Assembly (NCBI GenBank): GCA_028714495.1 | Contig: JAQTMH010000003.1 | Span: forward strand, 72,496 to 136,495 | Length of the DNA stretch: 64,000 nt | Direction: 5' to 3' | Origin: Patescibacteria group bacterium | GTDB taxonomy: Bacteria; Patescibacteriota; Patescibacteriia; JAHIZJ01 | Part shown: piece after piece, positions 11,247 to 34,516 of the stretch | How positions within the stretch are numbered: position 1 is the first letter of the stretch | Layout of the letters: each line of letters starts with the position of its first letter | Position numbers and translations under genes: made by a program | Notes under the pieces: model-generated | Told to the model about the DNA's origin: nothing | Database searches by the model: none | Seen by the model: only the letters and a program-made list of their open reading frames with translations

Positions 11247-11636
11247 GGGGATGTCCAACATCGACGGGTAGCCCATTCAAAAACCGGCCAATCAGAGCTC
11301 CAGAACTCTGTCAAAATCTGGAAAAACGACAAATGCCAAGTCGACTTTCGCTAAACTGAAGAATGCTTTCGCATCATTCAGTTTTGCGCCCGCTGTTGCC
11401 TAATAATCAACAGCCATCCGTTCTCTTGACTCCTGATAGGGAGATAACGGGTGTCAAATTATCAGGACGGACGATTTATCCGTTTCAGTAAGTCGTTATC
11501 GGGCTATGAAGCTAGAATGAAGAGGGCTTTTGTCTGTCTTGACCCTTTTCATTCGAATCAATCGAGATAGACTATGTTGGTAGAAGGTTTTTGGAAAACT
11601 ATCCAGACAGGGGTGAAAGGCCCCTCATCTCCACCA
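11247..11636 (+). ncRNA. ssrA: tmRNA
   Basis: 5' GGGGATG pairs with 3' CATCTCC-ACCA including G3-U70. Tag ORF 11335-11403 reads (A)AKSTFAKLKNAFASFSFAPAVA followed by TAA TAA. Confidence 0.95.
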
Positions 11637-23031: not shown

Positions 23032-23937
23032 TTAGAGACTAGGCCGGGTGTCTCGGAGATATTCCATGAAGTACTGGGCATCTCGAGTACAACCCTTGGG
23101 CAGTCGTGGAACATCGCGGCACAGCACTGGCCGACCCGAGCATTCGCCCACTGCCTGCCAGAGCTTGATGCTCTGATCCAGCACAAACCTGGAAAAATCA
23201 ATCACGCAGTCAGTCGGAATCGAAGCGCCGCTGATCGGATCGCCGAACGGCAGGCAATACGGCAAAGCCACTTCTGGCTCGCACGGAATCACCTGGCTAT
23301 CAACCCGACGACCTGCGGTCCTCCCGGATAAAGGAACGCCGACATAAAAGTCCCGCTCGCAGACCCAATCAACTACAGCTGGGTACTCGCGCACACCGAC
23401 CAGCTCCACCCATGGATGCTTGGCCAGAAGCTGGTTTTCCGGCCGGCCAATGATTATCCCGACGATGACTTGACTGACCACATAGCCATTTTCCCGCATT
23501 AGTTCGGTTATCCGAAGCAGGGTGCCGCCTGAATAGCAACCGTCGTCAACCAGTGAAATCGGACGACCCTTGGGTAAAGATCTGATTTGGTCAACTAATG
23601 ACTCGAAGCCGGCACGACGCGATTCGCCTAGAATCTGGGTCGTGCTGATATCAGCCACGCGGTTGCACTCCAGATGATAGGGCGTCTGGTTGTAGATCTG
23701 GTCGATCGAGACAACGATCGTTCCGGCGGCTCGGGCAGCAATCGCGGCTTGCAGTTTTCCGCTCAAATCAGCCAGTTCGATAAGTTCAAGCGGCCGAAAG
23801 ATCGTTCGCAGATAGCCAAGCAGCTCCTGCTGGAGGGTCCGGAAAAAGTCCGAACTCGGACAGCTGAAGCCAACACGCTCGGCCCATCTGCGCATGAGGA
23901 ATTCCAGATCCTCGGTTACGAGGTAGGGTGGCTTCAT
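23032..23937 (-). CDS. Type I phosphoribosyltransferase-like protein
   Basis: PRPP-binding-like motif ISLVDDGCYSGGTL; overlaps the upstream gene by 4 nt (ATGA). Confidence 0.7.
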   Translation of the reverse strand: MKPPYLVTEDLEFLMRRWAERVGFSCPSSDFFRTLQQELLGYLRTIFRPLELIELADLSGKLQAAIAARAAGTIVVSIDQIYNQTPYHLECNRVADISTTQILGESRRAGFESLVDQIRSLPKGRPISLVDDGCYSGGTLLRITELMRENGYVVSQVIVGIIIGRPENQLLAKHPWVELVGVREYPAVVDWVCERDFYVGVPLSGRTAGRRVDSQVIPCEPEVALPYCLPFGDPISGASIPTDCVIDFSRFVLDQSIKLWQAVGECSGRPVLCRDVPRLPKGCTRDAQYFMEYLRDTRPSL

Positions 23938-24773
23938 GCTCTCCTCCTTTTCCCTAAGGGTTTCGTGGAAATCCGCTGTAGGATTTCCAGAGCTCCAGCT
24001 GTGATCGGCTCCGTAGCCACAAAGTCAGCGACCGCCTGTAATTCAGCGGCAGCATTGCTGACAGCGCAAAGTAGGTCTACATGTCCTAAGAGCCTGGCGT
24101 CGCTCCTGCCATCGCCAATGGCGATCACCCTGTATCCACGATACTTCCGCCGTAGCACGGGAACGGCAAGCTCTTTGTCTAACCCGGCACTTGATAGAAT
24201 CAGCACACCACATTCAGCATTGGCATCGATGTCCACCAACTCGGTTATTCCCAGTCTATCGAGAACCACTTTCACGGTCCCGACCACGCTGGGATAAGCT
24301 CCATAATCAGGAGTCAGCTGGTTTGTCCAGACATGCAGGCCAAAGCCACAGAGACGGAATGGATTGATGACAATCATCGTGCCTGACCGCGCATCTAGCC
24401 CGCGTTGGTTCGACAGGAGATCAAGGTAGTATTCCTCAGTCAGGGCGAAGTCTGGAAAAGCGCTCCGGAGTGAAGATATAATCAGCTGCTTGACCGAATG
24501 CCAGCCGATTACCTGCTGTCGAGTAAGTAGGTGACTGCCGGACAGCGTCGAGACAATGGCTCCTTTTTCACTGACGATCGGACCGGTAAAACCGAATATC
24601 CCCATCCAGCGCCGAAGCGGCTCATACGGAGTATCCGAGTTTAGCCCGAAAAGATCGCCCGCCTCCATCATCTGTCGAACCAATAGTTTGAACGCGTCTA
24701 GCTGGATTGTCGGCTGATAATCCCGACCGATAAGACTCATGTCGAGATCGCAGAGAATCAGTCTGGGTCTCAT
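23934..24773 (-). CDS. HAD superfamily (IIB/Cof-like) phosphatase
   Basis: ILCDLDMSL, NSD, SEKGA, DK, AIGDGRSD, VSNA. Confidence 0.85.
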   Translation of the reverse strand: MRPRLILCDLDMSLIGRDYQPTIQLDAFKLLVRQMMEAGDLFGLNSDTPYEPLRRWMGIFGFTGPIVSEKGAIVSTLSGSHLLTRQQVIGWHSVKQLIISSLRSAFPDFALTEEYYLDLLSNQRGLDARSGTMIVINPFRLCGFGLHVWTNQLTPDYGAYPSVVGTVKVVLDRLGITELVDIDANAECGVLILSSAGLDKELAVPVLRRKYRGYRVIAIGDGRSDARLLGHVDLLCAVSNAAAELQAVADFVATEPITAGALEILQRISTKPLGKRRRA

Positions 24774-25783
24774 ATGGCCACCTCAGCCAGCGAAGAGATT
24801 AGGCGACCGGCCTGTTCCTGCATGGCTTCGATCAGCCAGACCCGTTCAGGATCTAGACAATAGTCACAACGGCAGGCGGCATAGGCACTGTAGTAGACCG
24901 CGCAGCACAATTCATAGAGCTGAGGCGTAAATATCCCCGCCTCAATCATCAGTTGCCGTGCCCTTTTGATTCTGCGCAAGGCGCCAAGATGGAATACAGA
25001 TCCCACAGTCTTTCTGATCTCCAATTCCTTGCGTCTGAGCGAGGCTTCGAGAGCGGCTAGGTCAACTGCGATGTTTCCGTCCGCCAAGCGCTCTTTGGAC
25101 CAAGGCAACGCCATCTTCGGGTCAATGAATCTGACCCGTGGCTGGTCAAGCGATTCGCTAACCAGCACATTGATAGCGACATTATCTTTCAGCGCCATCG
25201 AAGAAGACCAGCGTTCGAAAAACCAGGGAAAACGCTTTTGCAGCCGATCCAGCGCTGGGTTCAATCCGGTCATTTTCGCCCTTTCCAGATTTACCCGAAA
25301 CGCGCTCAGGCATTCCTGGAAAAACGTCTCTTGATCGTCTTGATTGCCGCGACTGGTCAAACTGTAGATCATTCTCAGCTTGTCAATCACCTGGCCGACG
25401 ATGTTGCCGATCTGAGATTGGCGTCGCTGGATGATTGGATGGTGACACGGCAGTGTTTCAAGCCATTCGCACAGGTCCAGGCAAATCGCCTCAAGCGTCC
25501 GTTCCCCCGCCACTTCCAGAAACAGCACTCCTTGATCATCCGTTTGGTTGACGAGTCGAAAATCAGGCAGAAACTCACCATATCGATCACCCAGCCGTGC
25601 CTGAAGAGTCCGATAAGCAGCCACATCGCCATTCAAGATGTCCAGCCGGCCGGCCTTCACCACGCCCCGGACCAGAAATGTGTCAGCGCCAGAAGCACCC
25701 TCTTGCCTGTCAAATGTCATCAAGCTGACTGCCGCTGATGCCGAACCAATCAAACCCTGCTTTGCTAAACCCAAGAATTCCAT
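24770..25783 (-). CDS. Kinase-like (APH/phosphotransferase fold) protein with C-terminal CxCxxC
   Basis: GASGA loop, VVK, LFLE, LKDNVAINVL, FIDP, DLA; SD GAGGAGG. Confidence 0.55.
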   Translation of the reverse strand: MEFLGLAKQGLIGSASAAVSLMTFDRQEGASGADTFLVRGVVKAGRLDILNGDVAAYRTLQARLGDRYGEFLPDFRLVNQTDDQGVLFLEVAGERTLEAICLDLCEWLETLPCHHPIIQRRQSQIGNIVGQVIDKLRMIYSLTSRGNQDDQETFFQECLSAFRVNLERAKMTGLNPALDRLQKRFPWFFERWSSSMALKDNVAINVLVSESLDQPRVRFIDPKMALPWSKERLADGNIAVDLAALEASLRRKELEIRKTVGSVFHLGALRRIKRARQLMIEAGIFTPQLYELCCAVYYSAYAACRCDYCLDPERVWLIEAMQEQAGRLISSLAEVAI

Positions 25784-25939
25784 GGTCTCCCCTCCTCGTT
25801 TGTTGGTCAGTTTTCAAAGAGCCATTATAGTCAATGAGTGACTAGCAAATTTATTCGAGCCGTTTCCTTTAGTCTTTCATCAAATCAATGCTTCAGGTAT
25901 TCAAGGGAATTTAGTATATATAATCCAGTTTGTCAATGC

Positions 25940-27058
25940 TTAAGAAACCAAAGCATTTTTCTGCAATATTATGGCTTGTTTTAACACCTCGAAACTGGCT
26001 GGCCTCAGTTCCCAAATCACGCACAATTTACCATCGCTATTGGCGCTGATCATCTCCAGAACCGTCTTGGCTGATTTGAAAACAAATCCGACTGGAATGT
26101 GGTCGTCAATTACCACATCCCTGACGATTTGCCGCTTGTACCAAAAATCCGCTTTGGCTTTTTTGAGCTGATCCGGGCTGGCTTCTTTCGTAAATTCTTT
26201 GGTTGTCAGAGAATCAGACAGGTGCACTGCTTTTATCCTTTTTAATATTTCGGGATTATCAGCAAGTTCCTTTTTAATTCTCTGGTCAATCGAATCCGGT
26301 CTATCACCTGCTTCTTGCCCTAACACCGCAACACTGTGTGCTGTATCAAAAGTAACACCTACTTCATTTAAGTCACGGTTTATAAATATTTCCCTAAAAT
26401 CCGCCAGCCGCCGCACGCCCCTATCAATCGCACTGCCGTTTTCAAGCGTTAATAGTTTGGCAAAACCAGAATCGCGCTTTATCAAGTCTTCGGTAAATTG
26501 CCGAACTGCGCTGATCACTGCCTGATCAGAATATTTCCGATCGCCAAATAAAATATCATCATAATCAATCTGATTCGCGTGCCAAGTAGCAACCCTGGCA
26601 TCCAGCTCGCCAGCGATATCTAACTCTCTAGTTAAACGTTCAATCATTACTTCTGGTTTATCGCCGCTGAAATATTTTCGGACATTGGCTGGAGTATAAA
26701 AAGTACGCAGCAATCTCGCCTGATCTTGCTTGTAAAAAGGTATCCAGCTGGCCCAGTCTGATAAGTGGACAGTTAAATTTCCCTGAAATCTGATTTTCTT
26801 CAGCGGATTTGGATCAAAATTCTCGGTAAAACCGATAAAATCCTGGATCCGAATTTCCATTCCGTCAAAGCCCTGTTCCAGGCACCAGTTTTCAATTCTC
26901 GACAAATCCCTGTTAAACTCCTTGATAATCAGTGAGTTGACTGACAACAGCTGAAATCTGGCCGACTTTTCTTTCTTCCAAAGCAAATCAAAGTCTGCTG
27001 GCGGTTTGAGCGCCTTGAACTTTTCCTCGATTAATTTGTCTTTGCTGGTTAATTCCAT
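25940..27058 (-). CDS. TIM-barrel metalloenzyme (xylose isomerase/AP endonuclease 2-like)
   Basis: GMEI, VHL, TWH, LEN, FDTAH, VHLSDS, DDH, WEL metal-ligand pattern. Confidence 0.8.
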   Translation of the reverse strand: MELTSKDKLIEEKFKALKPPADFDLLWKKEKSARFQLLSVNSLIIKEFNRDLSRIENWCLEQGFDGMEIRIQDFIGFTENFDPNPLKKIRFQGNLTVHLSDWASWIPFYKQDQARLLRTFYTPANVRKYFSGDKPEVMIERLTRELDIAGELDARVATWHANQIDYDDILFGDRKYSDQAVISAVRQFTEDLIKRDSGFAKLLTLENGSAIDRGVRRLADFREIFINRDLNEVGVTFDTAHSVAVLGQEAGDRPDSIDQRIKKELADNPEILKRIKAVHLSDSLTTKEFTKEASPDQLKKAKADFWYKRQIVRDVVIDDHIPVGFVFKSAKTVLEMISANSDGKLCVIWELRPASFEVLKQAIILQKNALVS

Positions 27059-27063
27059 ACAGG

Positions 27064-27822
27064 TTATTTGCTTAAAAGTTCAACCGCCCGTAAAGCAACC
27101 TTGATAGCTTTATCCACGCCTTGATCTGCCTCGGCTGAAGTCTCCAATTTATAAATTAAACCGGGGTCTTTCGCAATCTCGTCCAGCGGTTCAGTGGTAT
27201 TGACCGATAAAACCGTGCCGGCTTTTAAACCTCGCAGCTGGGCTAGCGTAAACACAGCCGAGCATTCCATTTCCGAACTCACTAGCTCGCCTTTTTTATA
27301 TTCAGGCAAATCCATCAGTTTTAAGAAATTATCAGTTGGCTCGTAAAATGAATCGTGCGTGCGGTTTGTGCCGATGAAATATTTAATATTTAATTCTTCA
27401 GCTGCTTGCTTCAAAGCCCGAAACACCTCAGGGTCGGGTTTGGCTTCGAATTCCTCGCCGACATATTCTTTGGTGGTGCCTTCCTGTCGGATCGCCTTAT
27501 CTGGAATAATTAAGTTCCCTGGAACAATGGTTTTCTTCAGGGCGCCGCAAGTGCCAATACGGATGAATATCTTGGCGCCTACCTTAGCCAGCTCCTCAAC
27601 GGCAATGGCCGCCGAGGGAGAACCAATGCCCGTCGAAGTGGCGGAAATTGGAATGCCTTTATATTTACCCGTGTAGGTCAAAAATTCCCTGTTAAAAACA
27701 ACCTCACGGGATTCGTCCCAATATTCGGCGATTCTCCTAACTCGAGCTGGATCGCCTGGAATCAAAACAATTTCGGCGATATCGCCTGGTTTAATTCTCA
27801 GATGTGGTTGTAAATTTTCCAT
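27064..27822 (-). CDS. Nucleoside phosphorylase (NP-I, Udp/DeoD family), substrate uncertain
   Basis: PGDPAR, NREF, STGIGSPS, RIGTCG, EME. Confidence 0.9.
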   Translation of the reverse strand: MENLQPHLRIKPGDIAEIVLIPGDPARVRRIAEYWDESREVVFNREFLTYTGKYKGIPISATSTGIGSPSAAIAVEELAKVGAKIFIRIGTCGALKKTIVPGNLIIPDKAIRQEGTTKEYVGEEFEAKPDPEVFRALKQAAEELNIKYFIGTNRTHDSFYEPTDNFLKLMDLPEYKKGELVSSEMECSAVFTLAQLRGLKAGTVLSVNTTEPLDEIAKDPGLIYKLETSAEADQGVDKAIKVALRAVELLSK

Positions 27823-27840
27823 TGGTTTGCTTTATTTATT

Positions 27841-28115
27841 AAAAAACTCTCATTCCTCGACAAGTTATTAAAAATAATAACTAGCTAAGGAACGAGAGTT
27901 TACTCCCGCGGTCCCATCCTTATTTCCGGTCTTTACCTTAAATCAGGCAACAACCAGACACTTATTTCAAGCTTCACGATGCGTGACCACCGTTCCCGGT
28001 TTTGACCGGGACTGCTTAAGAGGTGTGTTCAATGGTTTTCTGGGCCTGGCTTCCACTGTCCCAAGCTCTCTATTCAGCCAGAAATGGCCATTTACTATGC
28101 CTCTTTGTTAGCGCA
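27841..28115 (-). promoter_or_regulatory. T-box riboswitch, His specifier (CAC), with terminator/antiterminator
   Basis: Stem I has AGTA, AGAGA and GTGGAA motifs and GAA-CAC-A (CAC at 28025-28027). Stem II and III are present. T-box AATAAGGATGGGACCGCG lies at 27907-27924. Antiterminator is AAGGA-TGGGACC-GCGGGAG/CTCTCGT-TCCTT; terminator is AACTCTCGTTCCT...AGGAATGAGAGTT plus T-run. Confidence 0.92.
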
Positions 28116-28143
28116 TTTGAATTAAATTATCAAGGTAAATATA

Positions 28144-28173
28144 AGATTACACCATTGGCCTATTTCTAGTCAA
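28144..28173 (-). promoter_or_regulatory. Promoter for the T-box leader
   Basis: TTGACT-18 nt-TAATCT about 30 nt upstream of Stem I. Confidence 0.5.
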
Positions 28174-28188
28174 ATATCGGTTGTGGAT

Positions 28189-28222
28189 AAAAAAAGCCGT
28201 TGAGCAAGTTACTCAACGGCTT
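28189..28222 (-). terminator. Intrinsic terminator ending the hisS transcript
   Basis: AAGCCGTTGAG-TAACTTG-CTCAACGGCTT followed by a T-run; overlaps the hisS stop. Confidence 0.8.
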
Positions 28223-29600
28223 CAAGAAGTGAACGAATGTGCGAAATCAATTGGTCGCGCGGAACCGAGTGCTGTTTGCCTGCTGCGCCGAATGTGGTCC
28301 GGAGGTTCTTCACGGAAGCTTCGCCTCGGCTGAGCTCATCAGGACCGACCACGATCGCGATCGGTATCCGCTGAACATCGGCGTATTTGAACTGACGGCC
28401 GATGCGCGTTTCCTCACCCATGTAGAGCTCAGTATTCAGGCCCTCTCGTCTAAGCTCCGTGGCCAGCTGCTGGTAGACACCCAACTGGTTTTGATCAAAG
28501 ACGGTGACCAGAACCTGGGTTTTGCTAGGCGCTGTTCCAACCAAGCCGAGCTGTTCCAGGGCGGCGAAGAGCCGATCTACGCCGATCGAAGCACCGGTAG
28601 CAGGAATGCTGGTTTCGCTGAACCGGCCGATAAGTCCATCAAACCGTCCGCCGGAAAACACGCTGCCCCAGGTCGGCAAATCCAGAAGCCTCGTCTCAAA
28701 CACCGGACCGGTGTAGTAAGCCAGACCTCTGGCAATTGACAGGTCGATGATGAAACGCTCGGGCGGGATGCCTTGGGCTTTGAGTCCGGACAGAATCTGT
28801 TCCAGCTCGACGATCCCTTCGTCAACGGCCGAGCAGCCATTGAAGAAGCGCCTGAGCTGTTCGATCGTCTCAACCGGACTTCCTCCTGAAATGCCGACGA
28901 ATTCCATAATCCGATCAGCAATTTCCGGAGCCAAACCGATGCAGCGAGCACCGGCAGGTACTTCTCTCTGATCCACGCCTTCAGGCCCTTGCTTGGTCAG
29001 GGTGGCTTTGACTTCTTCGAGGCCGACTCTCTCGATCTTGTCTAGGGTCCGGAAGATGTCCGTGGCCCAGAAAGGATCGAGGCCCAAGAAAACCATCAAA
29101 GCGTTCAGGATCTTGCGGTTGCTGAAACGGATCAGGAAACGGGTAAGCCCCAGCTCAACCAAAGTGTCGTGGATGATGGCGATGATTTCAGTGTCAGCGG
29201 CCATTGAGCTGGTGCCGACAGTGTCAATGTCGAATTGCACGAATTCGCGGAAGCGTCCAGGTGCCGGTTCATCGCCGCGCCAGACCGGTCCGACCACGTA
29301 CCGTTTGAACGGTCGGGGCAGATCCGGGTACAGGGCGACAAACCGAGCCAGAGGTATGGTGTGATCGAAACGCAGTCCGGCTGGACGTCCTTCAGGATCA
29401 TCAAATCGGAAGATCTTAAGTTCGCTTGCATCAGTCTCTTCGCCGAGGAGAATCCTACGGTCTTCAATCGCCGGCGTCTCAATCGGTACAAAGCCATAGC
29501 GTTCATAAACGCGACGGATCTTCTCGATTAACGCTTGCCTGGCAATCATTTGAGCCGGCAGGTAATCTCGAAGTCCGCGCAGAAGTCGTGGTTCAATCAT
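28209..29600 (-). CDS. hisS: Histidine--tRNA ligase
   Basis: RGLRDYLP, ETPAIE, LRFDHT, GRFREFVQFDID, RGLAYYTG, GGRFDGL, GVDRL. Start moved to ATG 29600 because the track extension runs through a tRNA. Confidence 0.95.
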   Translation of the reverse strand: MIEPRLLRGLRDYLPAQMIARQALIEKIRRVYERYGFVPIETPAIEDRRILLGEETDASELKIFRFDDPEGRPAGLRFDHTIPLARFVALYPDLPRPFKRYVVGPVWRGDEPAPGRFREFVQFDIDTVGTSSMAADTEIIAIIHDTLVELGLTRFLIRFSNRKILNALMVFLGLDPFWATDIFRTLDKIERVGLEEVKATLTKQGPEGVDQREVPAGARCIGLAPEIADRIMEFVGISGGSPVETIEQLRRFFNGCSAVDEGIVELEQILSGLKAQGIPPERFIIDLSIARGLAYYTGPVFETRLLDLPTWGSVFSGGRFDGLIGRFSETSIPATGASIGVDRLFAALEQLGLVGTAPSKTQVLVTVFDQNQLGVYQQLATELRREGLNTELYMGEETRIGRQFKYADVQRIPIAIVVGPDELSRGEASVKNLRTTFGAAGKQHSVPRDQLISHIRSLLEAVE

Positions 29601-29638
29601 CTTCTGATCACCTGCCTTTCTTGATACGCCAGAAAAGA

Positions 29639-29716
29639 TGGGGGGCCGGACGGGAATCGAACCCGCGACCTCTTGATCCACAGTCAAGCGCTCTGACCAA
29701 CTGAGCTACCGACCCC
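29639..29716 (-). tRNA. tRNA-His(GTG), canonical with G-1:C73 and encoded CCA
   Basis: GGGGTCGG...CTTGA-CTGTGGA-TCAAG...GGTTCGATT...CCGGCCCC-CCA. Confidence 0.95.
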
Positions 29717-29741
29717 CAACACCACGAAGAGCCAAAAGACT

Positions 29742-29815
29742 GGGGCGAGACGGGAATCGAACCCGCGACCTCTTGATCCACAGTCAAGCGCTCTGACCAA
29801 CTGAGCTACTCGCCC
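29742..29815 (-). tRNA. tRNA-His(GTG) variant, no genomic G-1 and no encoded CCA
   Basis: D, anticodon and T arms are identical to the other copy. Acceptor is GGGCGAG/CTCGCCC with C73, C at -1, then AGT. Confidence 0.88.
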
Positions 29816-29858
29816 GTTTTCCCGGCCTGAGTTTGTAACAGACCGGGAACTTGTGCAC

Positions 29859-31478
29859 CTAGAGCGCCGCCGCAACCGCTTGCCGCAAAGCGCCGCTCTG
29901 GATCAGCTTCAACATCTTCTGATGGTCAGCCATGAGGAATCGATCATCATTCATCTCCTCGATGGCCGACCGGATCACCTGAAGGGCGACACTGGTACCG
30001 CGACCGAGCTTCGGATCATTGAGCGACTTCTGAGTCAGAGTAATGCCCTGGGCCGCTCCGATGAGCTCCCACGCGATCACCGCGAAAGCCAGCTCGATCA
30101 CCCGACGCATGTGCCGAGCCGAGATTGAAGCCATGCTGACATGATCTTCCTGGCCAGCTGAGGTCGGGATCGAAATCGCCTTGGCTGGATAGCACATTAC
30201 TGCGCATTCAGCGACTAGGGCAGCCACCGCGTATTGGGCAATCATTAGCCCGGTATTGAGGTCTGACTCACCAGCCAAATCAGCTGGCAAGCCATAGCTC
30301 GATTCCGGGTTCAGCAGAGCGTACAAACGAGAGTTCGAGATGTTAGCCAGGCACTGGGCGGCCAGTTTCATCTGCTCACTGGCATGCCCGAGCGGTTCTC
30401 CGTGGAAATTGCCACAAGACACTGCGACAAACTGCTCGCCAACTTGGAAGATCAGCGGATTGTCAGTCGCCGAGTTTGCCTCGATTGACAGAGCTTCCTT
30501 TGCCCGATCAATGATTTCTCTGACCGGGCCGGCCACTTGCGGATAGCACCGGTAAGAATAGGCGTCCTGAACGCGCGGCACCTTCAGATCATTCGGCTGA
30601 GACTTCACATGCTCAGCTGGCAAATCGACCAGTCGACAAGCATGGGTCATCCGCTCTGAACCAGCAGTCAGCTGACGAATCTCTGCTGCCACCTGGATCT
30701 GACCCGGATAGGGTCTGGCCAGGTGAACCCGTTCGTCAAACGCAGCTGTCTCACCGCGGATCGCTTCGAGCGAGAGCGCAGCTGCCAAATTCGAGTACCA
30801 AAGCAGAGACTCAAGGTCAGCCTGTCCCAGAATTGCCTGGGCCAGAATGAAAGTCGAACCATTGGTCAGAGCCATGGCTTCCTTGCCTTTGAGAACGATC
30901 GGCTGCAGATCAGCGGCAATCAGCGCATACTTGGCCGTCATGAATTCACCCTGATACCAGGCACGCTGTTCTTCCGATCCCATGAGCGTTGCCGAGACAT
31001 GCGCCAGTGGACAGAGATCGCCACTGGCACCGACTGAGCCGATCTGCGGAACATAGGGAATCACGCCGGCATTGTAGAGATTGACCAGACTCGCGCAGAG
31101 TTCAGGCCGTACGCCGGAATGCCCCTTGGCAAAGGAATTGGCCCGCAATACCAGTGCCAGTCTGACTACCTCGTCTGGGAACGGTTCGCCAAAACCAACG
31201 CAGTGAGCCGGAATGTAGTGCCTCTGATACGCGGTGATTTCTTCACCGGGAATCATGACGCACTTGCGACTGCCGCAGCCAGTGTTGAAACCATAGACCG
31301 CGTGATCTTGGCCGTAAGCGACCAGACCATCACGAAACTGACCAATCTCCTGCATTCTTTCCCCGGTGATTTCAACCCGGGGAAAAAGGTGAACGCCGGT
31401 AGCATCATCCTCACCCCGGGCTGCCAGAAGACAATCGGGCAAACCGAGATTTTCGCCATCGAGCCTGATATCGCGCAT
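29859..31478 (-). CDS. hutH: MIO-dependent aromatic amino acid lyase, histidine ammonia-lyase-like
   Basis: VYGFNTGCG, GSVGASGDL (MIO tripeptide ASG), QDAYSYRC, GNFHG, QEDHVSM; AAGGAG SD before ATG 31478. Confidence 0.85.
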   Translation of the reverse strand: MRDIRLDGENLGLPDCLLAARGEDDATGVHLFPRVEITGERMQEIGQFRDGLVAYGQDHAVYGFNTGCGSRKCVMIPGEEITAYQRHYIPAHCVGFGEPFPDEVVRLALVLRANSFAKGHSGVRPELCASLVNLYNAGVIPYVPQIGSVGASGDLCPLAHVSATLMGSEEQRAWYQGEFMTAKYALIAADLQPIVLKGKEAMALTNGSTFILAQAILGQADLESLLWYSNLAAALSLEAIRGETAAFDERVHLARPYPGQIQVAAEIRQLTAGSERMTHACRLVDLPAEHVKSQPNDLKVPRVQDAYSYRCYPQVAGPVREIIDRAKEALSIEANSATDNPLIFQVGEQFVAVSCGNFHGEPLGHASEQMKLAAQCLANISNSRLYALLNPESSYGLPADLAGESDLNTGLMIAQYAVAALVAECAVMCYPAKAISIPTSAGQEDHVSMASISARHMRRVIELAFAVIAWELIGAAQGITLTQKSLNDPKLGRGTSVALQVIRSAIEEMNDDRFLMADHQKMLKLIQSGALRQAVAAAL

Positions 31479-31524
31479 GACCGTTTCTCCTTTTGTGAGA
31501 AGCCCGCGAGCGACTGGTTTCGTT

Positions 31525-31554
31525 CTAGCAGTACGAGATTCCGTTCTCGGCCAT
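31525..31554 (-). CDS. 9-aa upstream ORF MAENGISYC
   Basis: GAGGAGGT SD 5 nt before ATG 31554; TAG at 31525-31527. Confidence 0.45.
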   Translation of the reverse strand: MAENGISYC

Positions 31555-31789
31555 AGACTGACCTCCTCGTGTTTGGATGGTTTGTTTGCGTAGTGGGTAA
31601 TTACAAGATAATCCTGCCCGCTTAACAAGCAAGATTATTGTCAATGTACTAGCTTTTCCAAGAATAACTCATCTTATCACGGGCCCAGAATCACTGTCAA
31701 TTAGCCCTTATGCACATAGCTTACTACATAATATTCTCAATAAAAAAGGCCGGGGGTTCATACACCCTGACAAAGTACTGGGTACGATA

Positions 31790-31987
31790 TTAAACTGATT
31801 TAATAACCTGCACTCTCCCCACTTCCCCGGTTTCCAGGCGTACCTTGATCCCGTGCGGATGATTTGGCGAACTCGTCAAAATGTCTTTGACTACGCCTTC
31901 AGTTAGTCGTCCAGTGCGTTGATCCTGCTTTTGCACGATCTCCACGCGCAAGCCAGGATAGATGTTATCGCGGATTTGATTGTCCAT
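31790..31987 (-). CDS. YwbE family protein
   Basis: KQDQRTG.LT.GVVKDILT.S..HPHGIKVRL..G.VGRV. Confidence 0.9.
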   Translation of the reverse strand: MDNQIRDNIYPGLRVEIVQKQDQRTGRLTEGVVKDILTSSPNHPHGIKVRLETGEVGRVQVIKSV

Positions 31988-32028
31988 CGTATAAATTTAT
32001 TGTTAAATCAAGAAAAACGGCACTTAGT

Positions 32029-32559
32029 TTATTTTTTCGCCATCTGGATTAAAACATCAGCCGCCTTTAAAACGTTCGCCTGGAACTTTTCGTCCGCCAG
32101 CTTCGGATCTTCGGGAAAATCTATCACCCGGCTGACATTGATTGAGAATTGGGAAACGATTAAGCCGAGCTGCCGTAACACCGGCAAAAGATTTTCAACC
32201 ACCCGAGTACCGCCGAAAATTCCCTTTGACACTCCACAGACTACCACCAGCTTGCCAGTATAATTGTCATAATCCTGGTCAAGCAACATTTTCAGTTCAC
32301 CAGGATAACCATGGTTATACTCCGGCGTAACAATTAAAAAGGCGCTGGCTCGTTTAACAATCTCCTGCCACGGTTTTGTGAGTTTGTTATTTTCCGAAGG
32401 CGGTATCGTTCGACCGTGAATATATTCTTTCACGTCAATCAGTTCGATTTCGATATCTTCGCGCGATTTAAGAATGTGAAGCACTGCCTGGGCGACCTTT
32501 TCAGATTGCCTACCCTCTCTGGCAGTGCCGAGCACAATTGGAATATATGGTTTTTCCAT
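32029..32559 (-). CDS. NAD(P)H-dependent FMN reductase
   Basis: LGTAREGRQS, TPEYNHGYPGELK, GGTR. Confidence 0.9.
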   Translation of the reverse strand: MEKPYIPIVLGTAREGRQSEKVAQAVLHILKSREDIEIELIDVKEYIHGRTIPPSENNKLTKPWQEIVKRASAFLIVTPEYNHGYPGELKMLLDQDYDNYTGKLVVVCGVSKGIFGGTRVVENLLPVLRQLGLIVSQFSINVSRVIDFPEDPKLADEKFQANVLKAADVLIQMAKK

Positions 32560-32718
32560 AAGTTAATATTTACTGGTATTTCTCGCGTTTATAAGTATAT
32601 CAAATAAATACGTATCAGGCATCTTTCTGTACAGCTATTTGACTGAATAAAACCAATATACTAATATGCCCGTGCGGTTGTTTTTTCCTTTTTGTACCTT
32701 CATCCCTGGGAGGGAAAA

Positions 32719-33141
32719 ATGGGTGAACCACGTGTTCCTTCTGGACTCGAAGATCTAGCCAGAGGCGCTTCTTACTCGCCGGCGATTGATCTGCCGCCTG
32801 GATCTGAGCTCGTACCCTTTTCCGGCATTGTCGATACACTTCAAGAAGGTGAAGAATCAATCCCTTCTGATCTAGCCTCCCAGACCAAACGCGTCCTTGC
32901 GAAGATGGTTTCGCAGGTTCAAGCTATGGGCTTGACCGCGAGCAACATTGTCAAGGTTACCGTGCTTCTCGTCTGTCCCAAGTCTGAGTTCCCAGTGTTC
33001 AACAAGGCCTGGACAGAATTCTGGGGTACGGCTTTCCCGCCTTGCCGCCGGGCCCATGGCGTAACCTGGGTACCAGGCACTGGCACGCTGATCGAAGTTG
33101 ATCCGATCGTGGTCCGTTTCCCAGAAGAGCCGACTGCCTAA
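32719..33141 (+). CDS. Rid (YjgF/YER057c/UK114) family protein
   Basis: YSPA, FSG, QT, IVKVTVLL, FNKAW, PPCRR, LIEVD; GGAGG SD before ATG 32719. Confidence 0.82.
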   Translation: MGEPRVPSGLEDLARGASYSPAIDLPPGSELVPFSGIVDTLQEGEESIPSDLASQTKRVLAKMVSQVQAMGLTASNIVKVTVLLVCPKSEFPVFNKAWTEFWGTAFPPCRRAHGVTWVPGTGTLIEVDPIVVRFPEEPTA

Positions 33142-33257: not shown

Positions 33258-34289
33258 TTAGGAAAAACTTAACTCACCCGGATATACCCAAATTTCCTTG
33301 AAGTTTTTTAGAGGTATTAGATCGGATTTCACAACCTCATGATCCTGGTTTTTAATTTGCTCAAACTGCTTGGGCGATAGAATTCGGTCAATATAACCGT
33401 CTCCCCTCTTTTCTAACACGCCAAAACCGGTCCAGAATTTCGCTACTGAATTTGAGGTTGTGCCGATTGGAATGGAATTATACTTGGGTAGCGGCGTGGC
33501 GGATAAATCAACCTTGCCTAATCCGCGTATCGCTTCATGAACCCGGGATAACCGGCAATAACCGTCATGGGCAATCGGGCCCATTTTTATTTTCTCCTGC
33601 TTCTCGTTCTCGTTCAGCCGCTTCCAATCTTCAGCGCCTTGCCACTGCAGATTAAGATTGGACGTTGCCTCTCTTTTTTTCTTGCGTTCTTCAGGCCAAT
33701 CTTTATATTCTTGCTTTACTTTATCTATAAAAGGCTCAAGTTCGTCGAGATATTCTTTTTCATTAGGATAAAGCTCGGCAAACGATCTTAATTCCAGCTT
33801 GATATTTCCCGGCAAATGCTCCAGAAATTCACCAAGTAATTTATTAAACGATTGGCGGTAGATTAAACAGTCTTTTTCCGGTATATTGCTCTGTCGTTTC
33901 ATAATTGAGGGATGAGCTGCCCAGTAGGTCATGATTACTCCAGGCTCATAAGCCTGCACAATGAGAGTAATGTATTTCAACATATAGCAAATATTAAAAA
34001 ATTCCGCCCAATCAACCTCCGGGGAGGTCTCAAAACTCCAGAGTTTATACCCGCCGAAAAAATAGGTAGTATTAATCGGCAGATGTTTAGTCACCGCATA
34101 GTGGATAGATTCTTTCAGCTCTTTAACGTAATCTTCACCGACCTTCCATTTGCGGAATTTTTTTGACATGAGACAGCGATAAATAAATGCTTCTGGTCCG
34201 TTTTTATCCAAAAATTCCCGGTCCGCTGTTTGCGGTTCGGTTTTGGAAGAATTTACTTTTTGACTTTTTAAATAATCCTCGACGGTCAT
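33258..34289 (-). CDS. Hypothetical protein, distant PvcA/Dit1 (isocyanide synthase)-like N-terminus
   Basis: LPI...FGGYK...PEVDWAE...AYEPGV. Start moved to ATG 34289 because the track extension overlaps tRNA-Gln. Confidence 0.6.
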   Translation of the reverse strand: MTVEDYLKSQKVNSSKTEPQTADREFLDKNGPEAFIYRCLMSKKFRKWKVGEDYVKELKESIHYAVTKHLPINTTYFFGGYKLWSFETSPEVDWAEFFNICYMLKYITLIVQAYEPGVIMTYWAAHPSIMKRQSNIPEKDCLIYRQSFNKLLGEFLEHLPGNIKLELRSFAELYPNEKEYLDELEPFIDKVKQEYKDWPEERKKKREATSNLNLQWQGAEDWKRLNENEKQEKIKMGPIAHDGYCRLSRVHEAIRGLGKVDLSATPLPKYNSIPIGTTSNSVAKFWTGFGVLEKRGDGYIDRILSPKQFEQIKNQDHEVVKSDLIPLKNFKEIWVYPGELSFS

Positions 34290-34324
34290 TTTCAAAAAAA
34301 GTCCTTTCAATATAGCGAGCTTAG

Positions 34325-34395
34325 CTCCGGGGCCTGGACTCGAACCAGGATACCCGCCTCCAAAGGGCGGTGTCCTACCATTAGACGACCCCGGA
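34325..34395 (-). tRNA. tRNA-Gln(TTG), CCA not encoded
   Basis: TCCGGGG...CCGCC-CTTTGGA-GGCGG...GGTTCGAGT...CCCCGGA-G. Confidence 0.93.
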
Positions 34396-34516
34396 GCAAA
34401 ACTCATTATAAGTTTTTTATTTCTATCGCCTCGAAACGATAGCGCTGACATCCGACCTAATCAAAAAAGGGCGCATCAACCCTATCCTATCAAACATTCG
34501 CAAATATTTCAAATCC

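Follow-up and report, generated by a model that had tools for sequence, protein, structure and literature searches.

In this work we describe a gene cluster of a Patescibacteria group bacterium (assembly GCA_028714495.1) in which an uncharacterised enzyme of phosphoribosyltransferase (PRT) fold is encoded behind a histidine (His) T-box, and we have found that three unrelated His sensors interchange ahead of the same PRT module in other loci. The cluster is located in a stretch of 64,000 nucleotides (contig JAQTMH010000003.1, positions 72,496 to 136,495), here called the window, to which the coordinates below refer unless another contig or locus is named. That the genes exist, are conserved and are linked to His is established, and the chemistry that we propose for them is deduced from sequence and fold likeness. 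The reading that we tentatively favour, with a confidence a little short of even, is that of a regulon induced by starvation that would free masked His, chiefly in N-(phospho)ribosyl form, and that also carries a second pair for charging tRNA-His. The system could be assigned neither to the his and hut pathways nor to any named family of PRT or nucleoside phosphorylase (NP), and no description of the module was found in the literature searched, which comprised the main text of open papers.

Low-histidine sensors ahead of the PRT module

The comparison is based on 45 PRT loci of at least 5 kb, which were kept from 63 tabulated after dropping four duplicates and one locus whose PRT had been missed by the open reading frame filter, and neighbours were counted within 8 kb of the PRT gene. 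A low-His sensor (T-box, HisR or His-rich leader) is present at 24 of them. His T-boxes with a CAC specifier stand ahead of NP, HAD and PRT genes at five loci (the window and four other genomes), and in genome G366 the T-box is directly 5' of HAD-PRT. The YerC/HisR gene was found at 13/45 loci, compared with 11 copies in 40 control genomes, and the operators of four of the eight HisR loci examined match the Firmicutes type at 12-13 of 14 positions, the remaining four being TrpR-like palindromes as judged by eye. The search for His-rich leaders yielded 29 short open reading frames in 2.45 Mb, 12 of which were near cluster genes and were examined; a hairpin of -9 kcal/mol or lower precedes a U-run in 10 of these 12, versus one in nine, at -8, in the window genome. 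Such leaders precede the PRT gene at L136 and L142, the lyase gene at L150 and L205, and runs of tRNA-hisS that continue to HAD, SLOG and PRT genes at L148, L170, L191 and L192, and they stand as the sensor at seven more loci.

All three sensors would be switched on at low His or low His-tRNA. His is the corepressor of HisR, which senses free His (PMC9413887). T-box, leader and HisR all respond to His shortage, and because of this the products of the module most likely supply His. The same three sensors, swapped between lineages and on at low His, are those of the Firmicutes His regulons, and their swapping is already known for his and hisS genes (PMC9413887 and PMC2965389, the latter for the swapping). 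However, the Firmicutes sensors control his biosynthesis, transporters or hisS, whereas those of Patescibacteria precede PRT, de-ribosylase, kinase and phosphatase genes in genomes that have no his pathway; sensor swapping for these enzymes was not reported in the literature searched.

Organization of the window cluster

All the features of the cluster are on the minus strand and are given here in 5' to 3' order, from the upstream open reading frame (uORF) to the PRT gene. An earlier sequence-only reading had listed these parts as far as the PRT gene, and every one of them was found.

31554-31525, minus strand: uORF of 9 codons, with a ribosome site and no His codon
31478-29859, minus strand: His ammonia-lyase (HAL)-type enzyme with a methylidene-imidazolone (MIO) group (PF00221, E 2e-149)
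29815-29742, minus strand: tRNA-His(GUG) copy 1, with C at -1, G1-C72, C73 and a 9-nt D-loop, without encoded CCA
29715-29639, minus strand: tRNA-His(GUG) copy 2, with G-1, C73 and CCA, that is, of canonical identity
29600-28209, minus strand: second histidyl-tRNA synthetase (HisRS) gene (hisS, encoding HisRS2), above the TIGR00442 cut-off
28223-28193, minus strand: intrinsic terminator, overlapping the hisS stop
28118-27885 (RF00230 match) or 28118-27840 (including the terminator hairpin), minus strand: His T-box
27822-27064, minus strand: nucleoside phosphorylase (NP-I)
27058-25940, minus strand: TIM barrel, putatively of xylose-isomerase / endonuclease IV type, with conserved His/Asp/Glu
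25783-24770, minus strand: APH-like small-molecule kinase, with D-x4-N and IDP motifs
24773-23934, minus strand: HAD-IIB phosphatase
23937-23032, minus strand: PRT, the core gene, of an uncharacterised type I PRT-fold family, with the VDDG..SGGT loop intact and a C-terminal extension of ~110 residues
23021-23000, minus strand: terminator-like hairpin at the operon end

The window T-box, the only one found in the host genome, is a full-length match to RF00230 with E 3.8e-19 and 90.6 bits, which is slightly short of the gathering score (93). Its specifier is GAA-CAC (CAC at 28027-28025), its bulge UGGG matches C73, and its terminator and antiterminator hairpins fold, the terminator hairpin (27901-27840) with -30.2 kcal/mol. 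By architecture, specifier codon and bulge it is a His-specific T-box, and it is predicted to respond to tRNA-His. No HisR-type operator was found in the window cluster, and the YerC-like gene of the genome is elsewhere (C3:14930-15310), among genes that look, from their sequences, like nucleotide-metabolism genes. The uORF was rejected as a His attenuator because it has no His codon; its position is retained in genome G001 and its sequence is not conserved. Upstream of the lyase gene (31638-31700, minus strand) there are two TTGACA boxes in a stretch that is well conserved in G001. The overall counts of promoter and terminator patterns are not above chance (13 versus 9.6+/-3.9 and 11 versus 11.7+/-3.5). 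At other loci (L217, L218 and L226) we observed a second T-box-like element, which lies before a low-molecular-weight phosphatase-like gene in two cases and right after tRNA-His in one. At L236 (5151-8167), where there is no PRT, a radical SAM protein of variant type and an enzyme of the Lyase_1 family come after HisR, and this radical SAM family also follows HisR in L135/L174.

The alternating base composition proposed for the cluster was confirmed: GC content is 0.53-0.57 in the lyase, hisS, kinase, HAD and PRT genes (90th to 97th percentile of 674 open reading frames) and 0.43-0.46 in the phosphorylase and TIM barrel genes, with the same alternation of two classes in G001. The FMN reductase and Rid genes that the sequence-only reading had placed beside the system did not hold as partners, as neither they nor YwbE had a match in the related loci searched, and Rid is encoded on the strand opposite to the cluster. 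An open reading frame at 33258-34451 (minus strand) has no Pfam or NCBIfam family and is 61% identical to a gene near the G001 cluster; we take it to resemble the PvcA/DIT1 isonitrile synthases.

Distribution and neighbourhoods of the PRT family

The PRT family was found in 26/401 genomes of the class and in 5/401 genomes of a phylum sample. A HisRS2-like gene is present in 14/26 PRT-positive genomes versus 29/375 of the others, and a lyase-family gene in 9/26 versus 9/375, counts in which the genomes are kin and not independent; Fisher tests on the locus counts that follow overstate significance for the same reason. Around the PRT gene itself there is a HisRS gene at 23/45 loci, a lyase gene at 13, HAD at 22, a kinase at 12, GNAT at 9 and a deacylase at 15. 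NP occurs at 9 loci and SLOG at 26, with both at only one, so that they are almost mutually exclusive and replace each other, and some de-ribosylase is present at 35/45. The neighbours at sister loci also include His-racemase-like proteins, M20/ASPA deacylases, and S58 and M15 peptidases. His markers of any kind are found at 36/45 loci (one resting on a weak decarboxylase match, and L142 being added by its leader), which upholds the idea of a His-linked system. The sequence-only reading had named, as the result that would speak against it, that the modules never co-occur in other genomes, and the opposite was found outright: besides these locus counts, the order lyase-tRNA-hisS-T-box-NP is kept in G001 and G281, and the metagenome contig L173 has the window order NP-TIM-kinase-HAD-PRT behind HisR.

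Gene order and strand vary between the PRT loci, and in three contigs unlike Patescibacteria (L199, L201 and L202) the PRT gene is beside hisG-tRNA-His-hisS, with a PIN gene, or beside hisZ-hisG-hisS-hisIE. These features could be explained if there were no single pathway, that is, if unrelated His-themed genes and a generic module for ribose-phosphate or phosphoribosyl pyrophosphate (PRPP) supply had been gathered under His control beside tRNA-His. The two GC classes, the occurrence of the lyase-tRNA-His-hisS triad without PRT in other phyla (see below), and a PRT gene beside NAMPT in a genome without the PRPP synthetase gene (prs) point in the same direction as the variable order and strand and the three his contexts in contigs unlike the candidate phyla radiation. 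However, three unrelated His sensors are found directly ahead of the PRT module in genomes without hisG, and NP and SLOG substitute for one another, so we regard this explanation as improbable.

Core enzymes and proposed chemistry

The PRT model (pLDDT 97.8) has the type I PRT fold with the core and a conserved PRPP loop. Its nearest structures are OPRT and UPRT (Z 10-11, with 11.2 to OPRT; root-mean-square deviation of ~3-3.7 A over 114-128 residues), its identity to solved PRTs is at most 21%, and its C-terminal extension is hardly covered by the structural matches. No cut-off of the named PRT families (OPRT, UPRT, HPRT, APRT, PRPS, PRTase-CE) is reached, the NCBIfam scores being at most 16 bits, and PF24390 matches weakly in 14/142 family members. 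The family has 721 representatives at 50% identity (E up to 1e-10), and fusions to GNAT, HAD and NMNAT-like domains (GNAT-PRT, HAD-PRT and NMNAT-like-PRT) occur. A phage origin was rejected, since no PRT relative was found in viral contigs with the query used. At 19 loci the HMM hits to the PRT each lie in a single frame, so a frameshift in the PRT was not seen there. Distant relatives (L165, L206) lie in NAD contexts with NrtR-like, NAMPT, NMNAT-like and NadE genes, one of them as the NMNAT-like-PRT fusion, and are possibly a type I-fold pyridine PRT.

The phosphorylase belongs to a cluster-specific NP-I subfamily (49-80% identity among 10 cluster copies) that is under the equivalog cut-offs (TIGR01718, 214 versus 280; deoD models, ~120-130 versus 230). 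The TIM barrel is an accessory gene, found at three loci, whose fold matches tie between xylose isomerase (Z 20.1) and endonuclease IV (Z 18.5), with many near ties and with a model of pLDDT 65.7 built from three sequences. Kinase and TIM barrel alignments, when searched against the sequences of solved structures, gave nothing usable, and a second kinase family related to the window APH-like kinase was found at other loci.

A PRT, a kinase, a phosphatase and N-glycoside-cleaving enzymes that replace one another make up the set of tools used in nucleoside salvage, and because of this the substrate is likely a ribosylated base. In fact, the salvage of purine, pyrimidine and pyridine nucleosides uses the same enzyme types (PRT, nucleotidase, kinase, NP-I, IUNH, LOG) to move a base back and forth between its free form, its nucleoside and its nucleotide; the difference is that the window PRT has such low identity and its C-terminal part, that the NP is below the cut-offs, and that the control is by His. 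Since the regulation points to His, the ribosylated base could be His itself. According to this, uncharged tRNA-His would let transcription read through the T-box, the HAD and the kinase would interconvert ribosyl-His and its 5'-phosphate, and the phosphorylase would cut the N-glycoside to yield His, a step that would fall to SLOG or a nucleoside hydrolase at other loci. The PRT-fold enzyme would run backwards with pyrophosphate to give His and PRPP, which would suit a cell without PRPP synthetase; no prs gene was found in the host genome, and because of this a reaction in reverse is the simpler assumption. A larger adduct, for instance His-ADP-ribose, may be trimmed by the TIM barrel. The unit of lyase, tRNA and hisS would have been acquired separately and have come to lie next to the operon, its HisRS and tRNA-His would likely keep His codons read, and the lyase could either dispose of excess His or re-aminate urocanate. 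The racemase-like proteins, deacylases and peptidases of sister loci would fit the recovery of His from D-His, acyl-His and dipeptides.

In a bolder version, which we consider unlikely as a whole, Patescibacteria would depend on a His economy of a hitherto undescribed kind: N-ribosylated His (such as His-ADP-ribose from NADases or immune enzymes of the organism that hosts the bacteria) would be harvested by the PRT-fold enzyme acting as a new pyrophosphorylase that yields His and PRPP together, and the lyase would be reversed on urocanate under the same starvation control, pulled by the second HisRS/tRNA pair. His-ADP-ribose, with an N-tau ribose link, does exist in bacteria as part of type II Thoeris (bioRxiv 10.1101/2024.01.03.573942), which is a conceivable substrate source for either version, the link being a chemical speculation. 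Among the neighbours that were annotated, neither TIR nor Macro genes were recognised.

Several points weigh against a salvage regulon. We know of no abundant natural source of ribosyl-His, and the literature search for one gave only metabolomics and chemistry entries. Nine of the 45 loci have no His marker, and a promoter-like site between the TIM barrel and the kinase may uncouple kinase-HAD-PRT from the window T-box. Enzymes that consume His are present, namely the GNATs (one of them in the GNAT-PRT fusion), the lyase and a His decarboxylase (L188), and some of them lie within low-His operons. The lyase under low-His leaders would make sense only in reverse or on an analogue, and the reverse HAL reaction needs high ammonium as well as capture by HisRS to be favourable. 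Furthermore, the paralog expansions (up to three PRTs and three HisRS) look more like conflict than plain salvage. The NAD-synthesis contexts of the distant PRT relatives, with their NMNAT-like fusion, suggest a forward synthesis of nucleotides, and prs is present in 17/29 PRT-positive genomes (14/30 controls), so that the forward reaction is open there.

Such a forward synthesis, in which the PRT would put phosphoribose on an acceptor (His, N-acetyl-His or urocanate) and the product, matured or reversed by HAD, kinase, SLOG/NP and deacylases, would serve as a caged store, for trapping on uptake or as a nucleotide signal, is possible but rather doubtful. It would account for the intact PRPP loop, for a type I fold nearest to OPRT/UPRT and for the three fusions, and NP plus PRT is the usual route from nucleoside to base to nucleotide. 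However, low His is the wrong time for spending His, the host and 11 other PRT-positive genomes (12/29) have no prs that could be found, and no recurring effector or sensor was seen in the neighbourhoods examined.

The spare synthetase raises a further alternative, a resistance island directed at an antimetabolite that resembles His or at a His nucleotide that inhibits HisRS, in which a spare and differently built HisRS/tRNA pair would be combined with toxin-modifying enzymes (for deamination, acetylation, racemisation, phosphorylation or de-glycosylation). The hisS linked to PRT is an extra copy in 12/13 other genomes with such linkage, the modifying enzymes are variable (an APH-like kinase, GNATs and an S66 peptidase among them), T-boxes and leaders sense charging and would fire on HisRS inhibition, and induction of the lyase would be accounted for; resistant synthetase paralogs are known for other inhibitors. 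But free His, which HisR senses (PMC9413887), would not fall on HisRS inhibition and yet HisR is found at 13 loci, and 22/45 PRT loci have no HisRS nearby. Added to this, no natural HisRS inhibitor of this kind is known to us, and we consider the resistance island unlikely, slightly more so than forward synthesis.

The lyase, tRNA-His and hisS triad

The window lyase keeps the MIO triad (ASG), the HAL-type motifs and the His-type pocket residues, including the equivalents of His83, Glu414, Tyr53 and Tyr280. Its best NCBIfam model is hutH, under the cut-off (471 versus 539), and this putative His ammonia-lyase belongs to a divergent subclade with pocket changes. A quick tree, built from 52 HisRS rows, puts the window HisRS among sequences of Acidobacteriota, Bacteroidota and Paracoccaceae (SH-aLRT 95, for an 18-row set that has the Paracoccaceae rows). 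HisRS2 thus falls in the alphaproteobacterial clade and has no Gln in the motif 2 loop.

The tRNA-His, hisS and hutH genes are adjacent in many genomes (Acidobacteriota, Bacteroidota and Planctomycetota records), and the PRT family is present in 0/40 genomes behind the HisRS2 hits, triad carriers included. Because of this, the lyase, tRNA-His and hisS are one widespread unit and not separate His signals, and the four independent signals counted by the sequence-only reading are reduced accordingly, the more so as the uORF is no His sensor.

Where the neighbouring synthetase is of HisRS2 type, as judged by its best BLAST hit, 29 of 31 tRNA-His genes have no G-1, and most of them keep C72. This is reminiscent of the Caulobacter HisRS/tRNA-His pair, whose tRNA lacks G-1 and has U72 and A73 (PMC3064791). 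The likeness extends to the HisRS2 clade, the 9-nt D-loop and the one window tRNA without G-1, whereas both window tRNAs have G1-C72 and C73, one has G-1, and they coexist with a canonical pair. A canonical HisRS should ignore tRNAs without G-1 (PMC3064791), which could favour a tRNA-dependent pathway or altered decoding in which the cluster would produce a His derivative and HisRS2 would load it onto its own tRNA. However, HisRS2 retains ordinary HisRS motifs, one window tRNA is of canonical identity, no recurring tRNA-dependent transferase was found, and Paracoccaceae genomes carry this type of enzyme too. There it is presumably the normal HisRS, and we find altered decoding very hard to credit.

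Histidine metabolism in the host genome

The host assembly (1.17 Mb, 98.9% complete) has Buchananbacteria records among its relatives by sequence comparison. No RNA data set was listed as a holder of the sequence, and the DNA data sets listed come from a single landfill study, which may be the source itself and hence gives no evidence on habitat. As the sequence-only reading had anticipated, canonical His biosynthesis genes were not found genome-wide: PF00977 (HisA/F) has no match, and tblastn of the host genome with HisG, HisD, HisB, HisHAF and HisIE queries from related loci returned only one aminotransferase, at 26%. A non-orthologous pathway was rejected, as dehydratase, dehydrogenase and cyclase partners were not found. 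HisA/F also has no match in 27/28 other PRT-positive genomes, the single match being in a polysaccharide cluster. In one class member (L158, G211:C12) a near-complete his operon has a HisRS2-like gene at its head.

The same reading had expected hutU, hutI and hutG to be missing. The window has no hutU and hutI was not found in the genome (TIGR01224, no match), but hutU (urocanase) is present elsewhere in it, and the only arginase-family gene belongs to a polyamine operon, beside decarboxylase and deoxyhypusine synthase genes. A lone urocanase at L002 (8816-10459) has a GC content of 0.575, high like those of the lyase and hisS2, and no hutI. The hutU gene is unlinked and is rare in the other PRT-positive genomes (3/28). 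What the genome shares with the hut pathway (hutHUIG) is a urocanase and a lyase of HAL type, and the differences are the lack of a detectable hutI, the arginase-family gene in another operon, the unlinked hutU, and the lyase behind low-His leaders in other genomes.

A count of hisS copies, which had been proposed as a check, showed that the genome also has a housekeeping hisS (C3:183183-184442), to which the window copy is 24% identical, and a canonical tRNA-His (G-1, C73, CCA) is encoded on C1, outside the window. Repair of tRNA-His by Thg1 was rejected since PF04446 has no match in the genome. ARAGORN, in a default run on the whole genome, gave 48 tRNAs with tRNA-Asn not among them, and its relaxed output was dismissed as noise; a tmRNA at window 11247-11636 (plus strand) is detected by Rfam and missed by ARAGORN.

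Relation to known systems and significance

Part of the earlier proposal, that the cluster serves His supply, stands in so far as low-His control fits it, with the lyase too behind His leaders elsewhere, and the regenerating reactions remain predicted ones. A hisS paralog under leader control is already known in Bacillus (PMC2965389 and PMC9413887). In plants, cytosolic HisRS has an N-terminal HAL-like domain without the MIO triad (PMC7564348) and so joins the same two families, while in the window the lyase has a gene of its own and keeps the triad.

The convergence of three unrelated His sensors on one uncharacterised enzyme family points to the class of metabolite on which it may act. If the salvage regulon is true, it would be a new salvage route with a new PRT chemistry acting on an amino acid, it would account for a His-degrading enzyme under low-His control and for the pairing of hutH and hisS across phyla and in plant HisRS, and it would explain a natural case of two HisRS/tRNA-His pairs in a single cell. 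The system bears on how Patescibacteria acquire the amino acids that are beyond their own synthesis.

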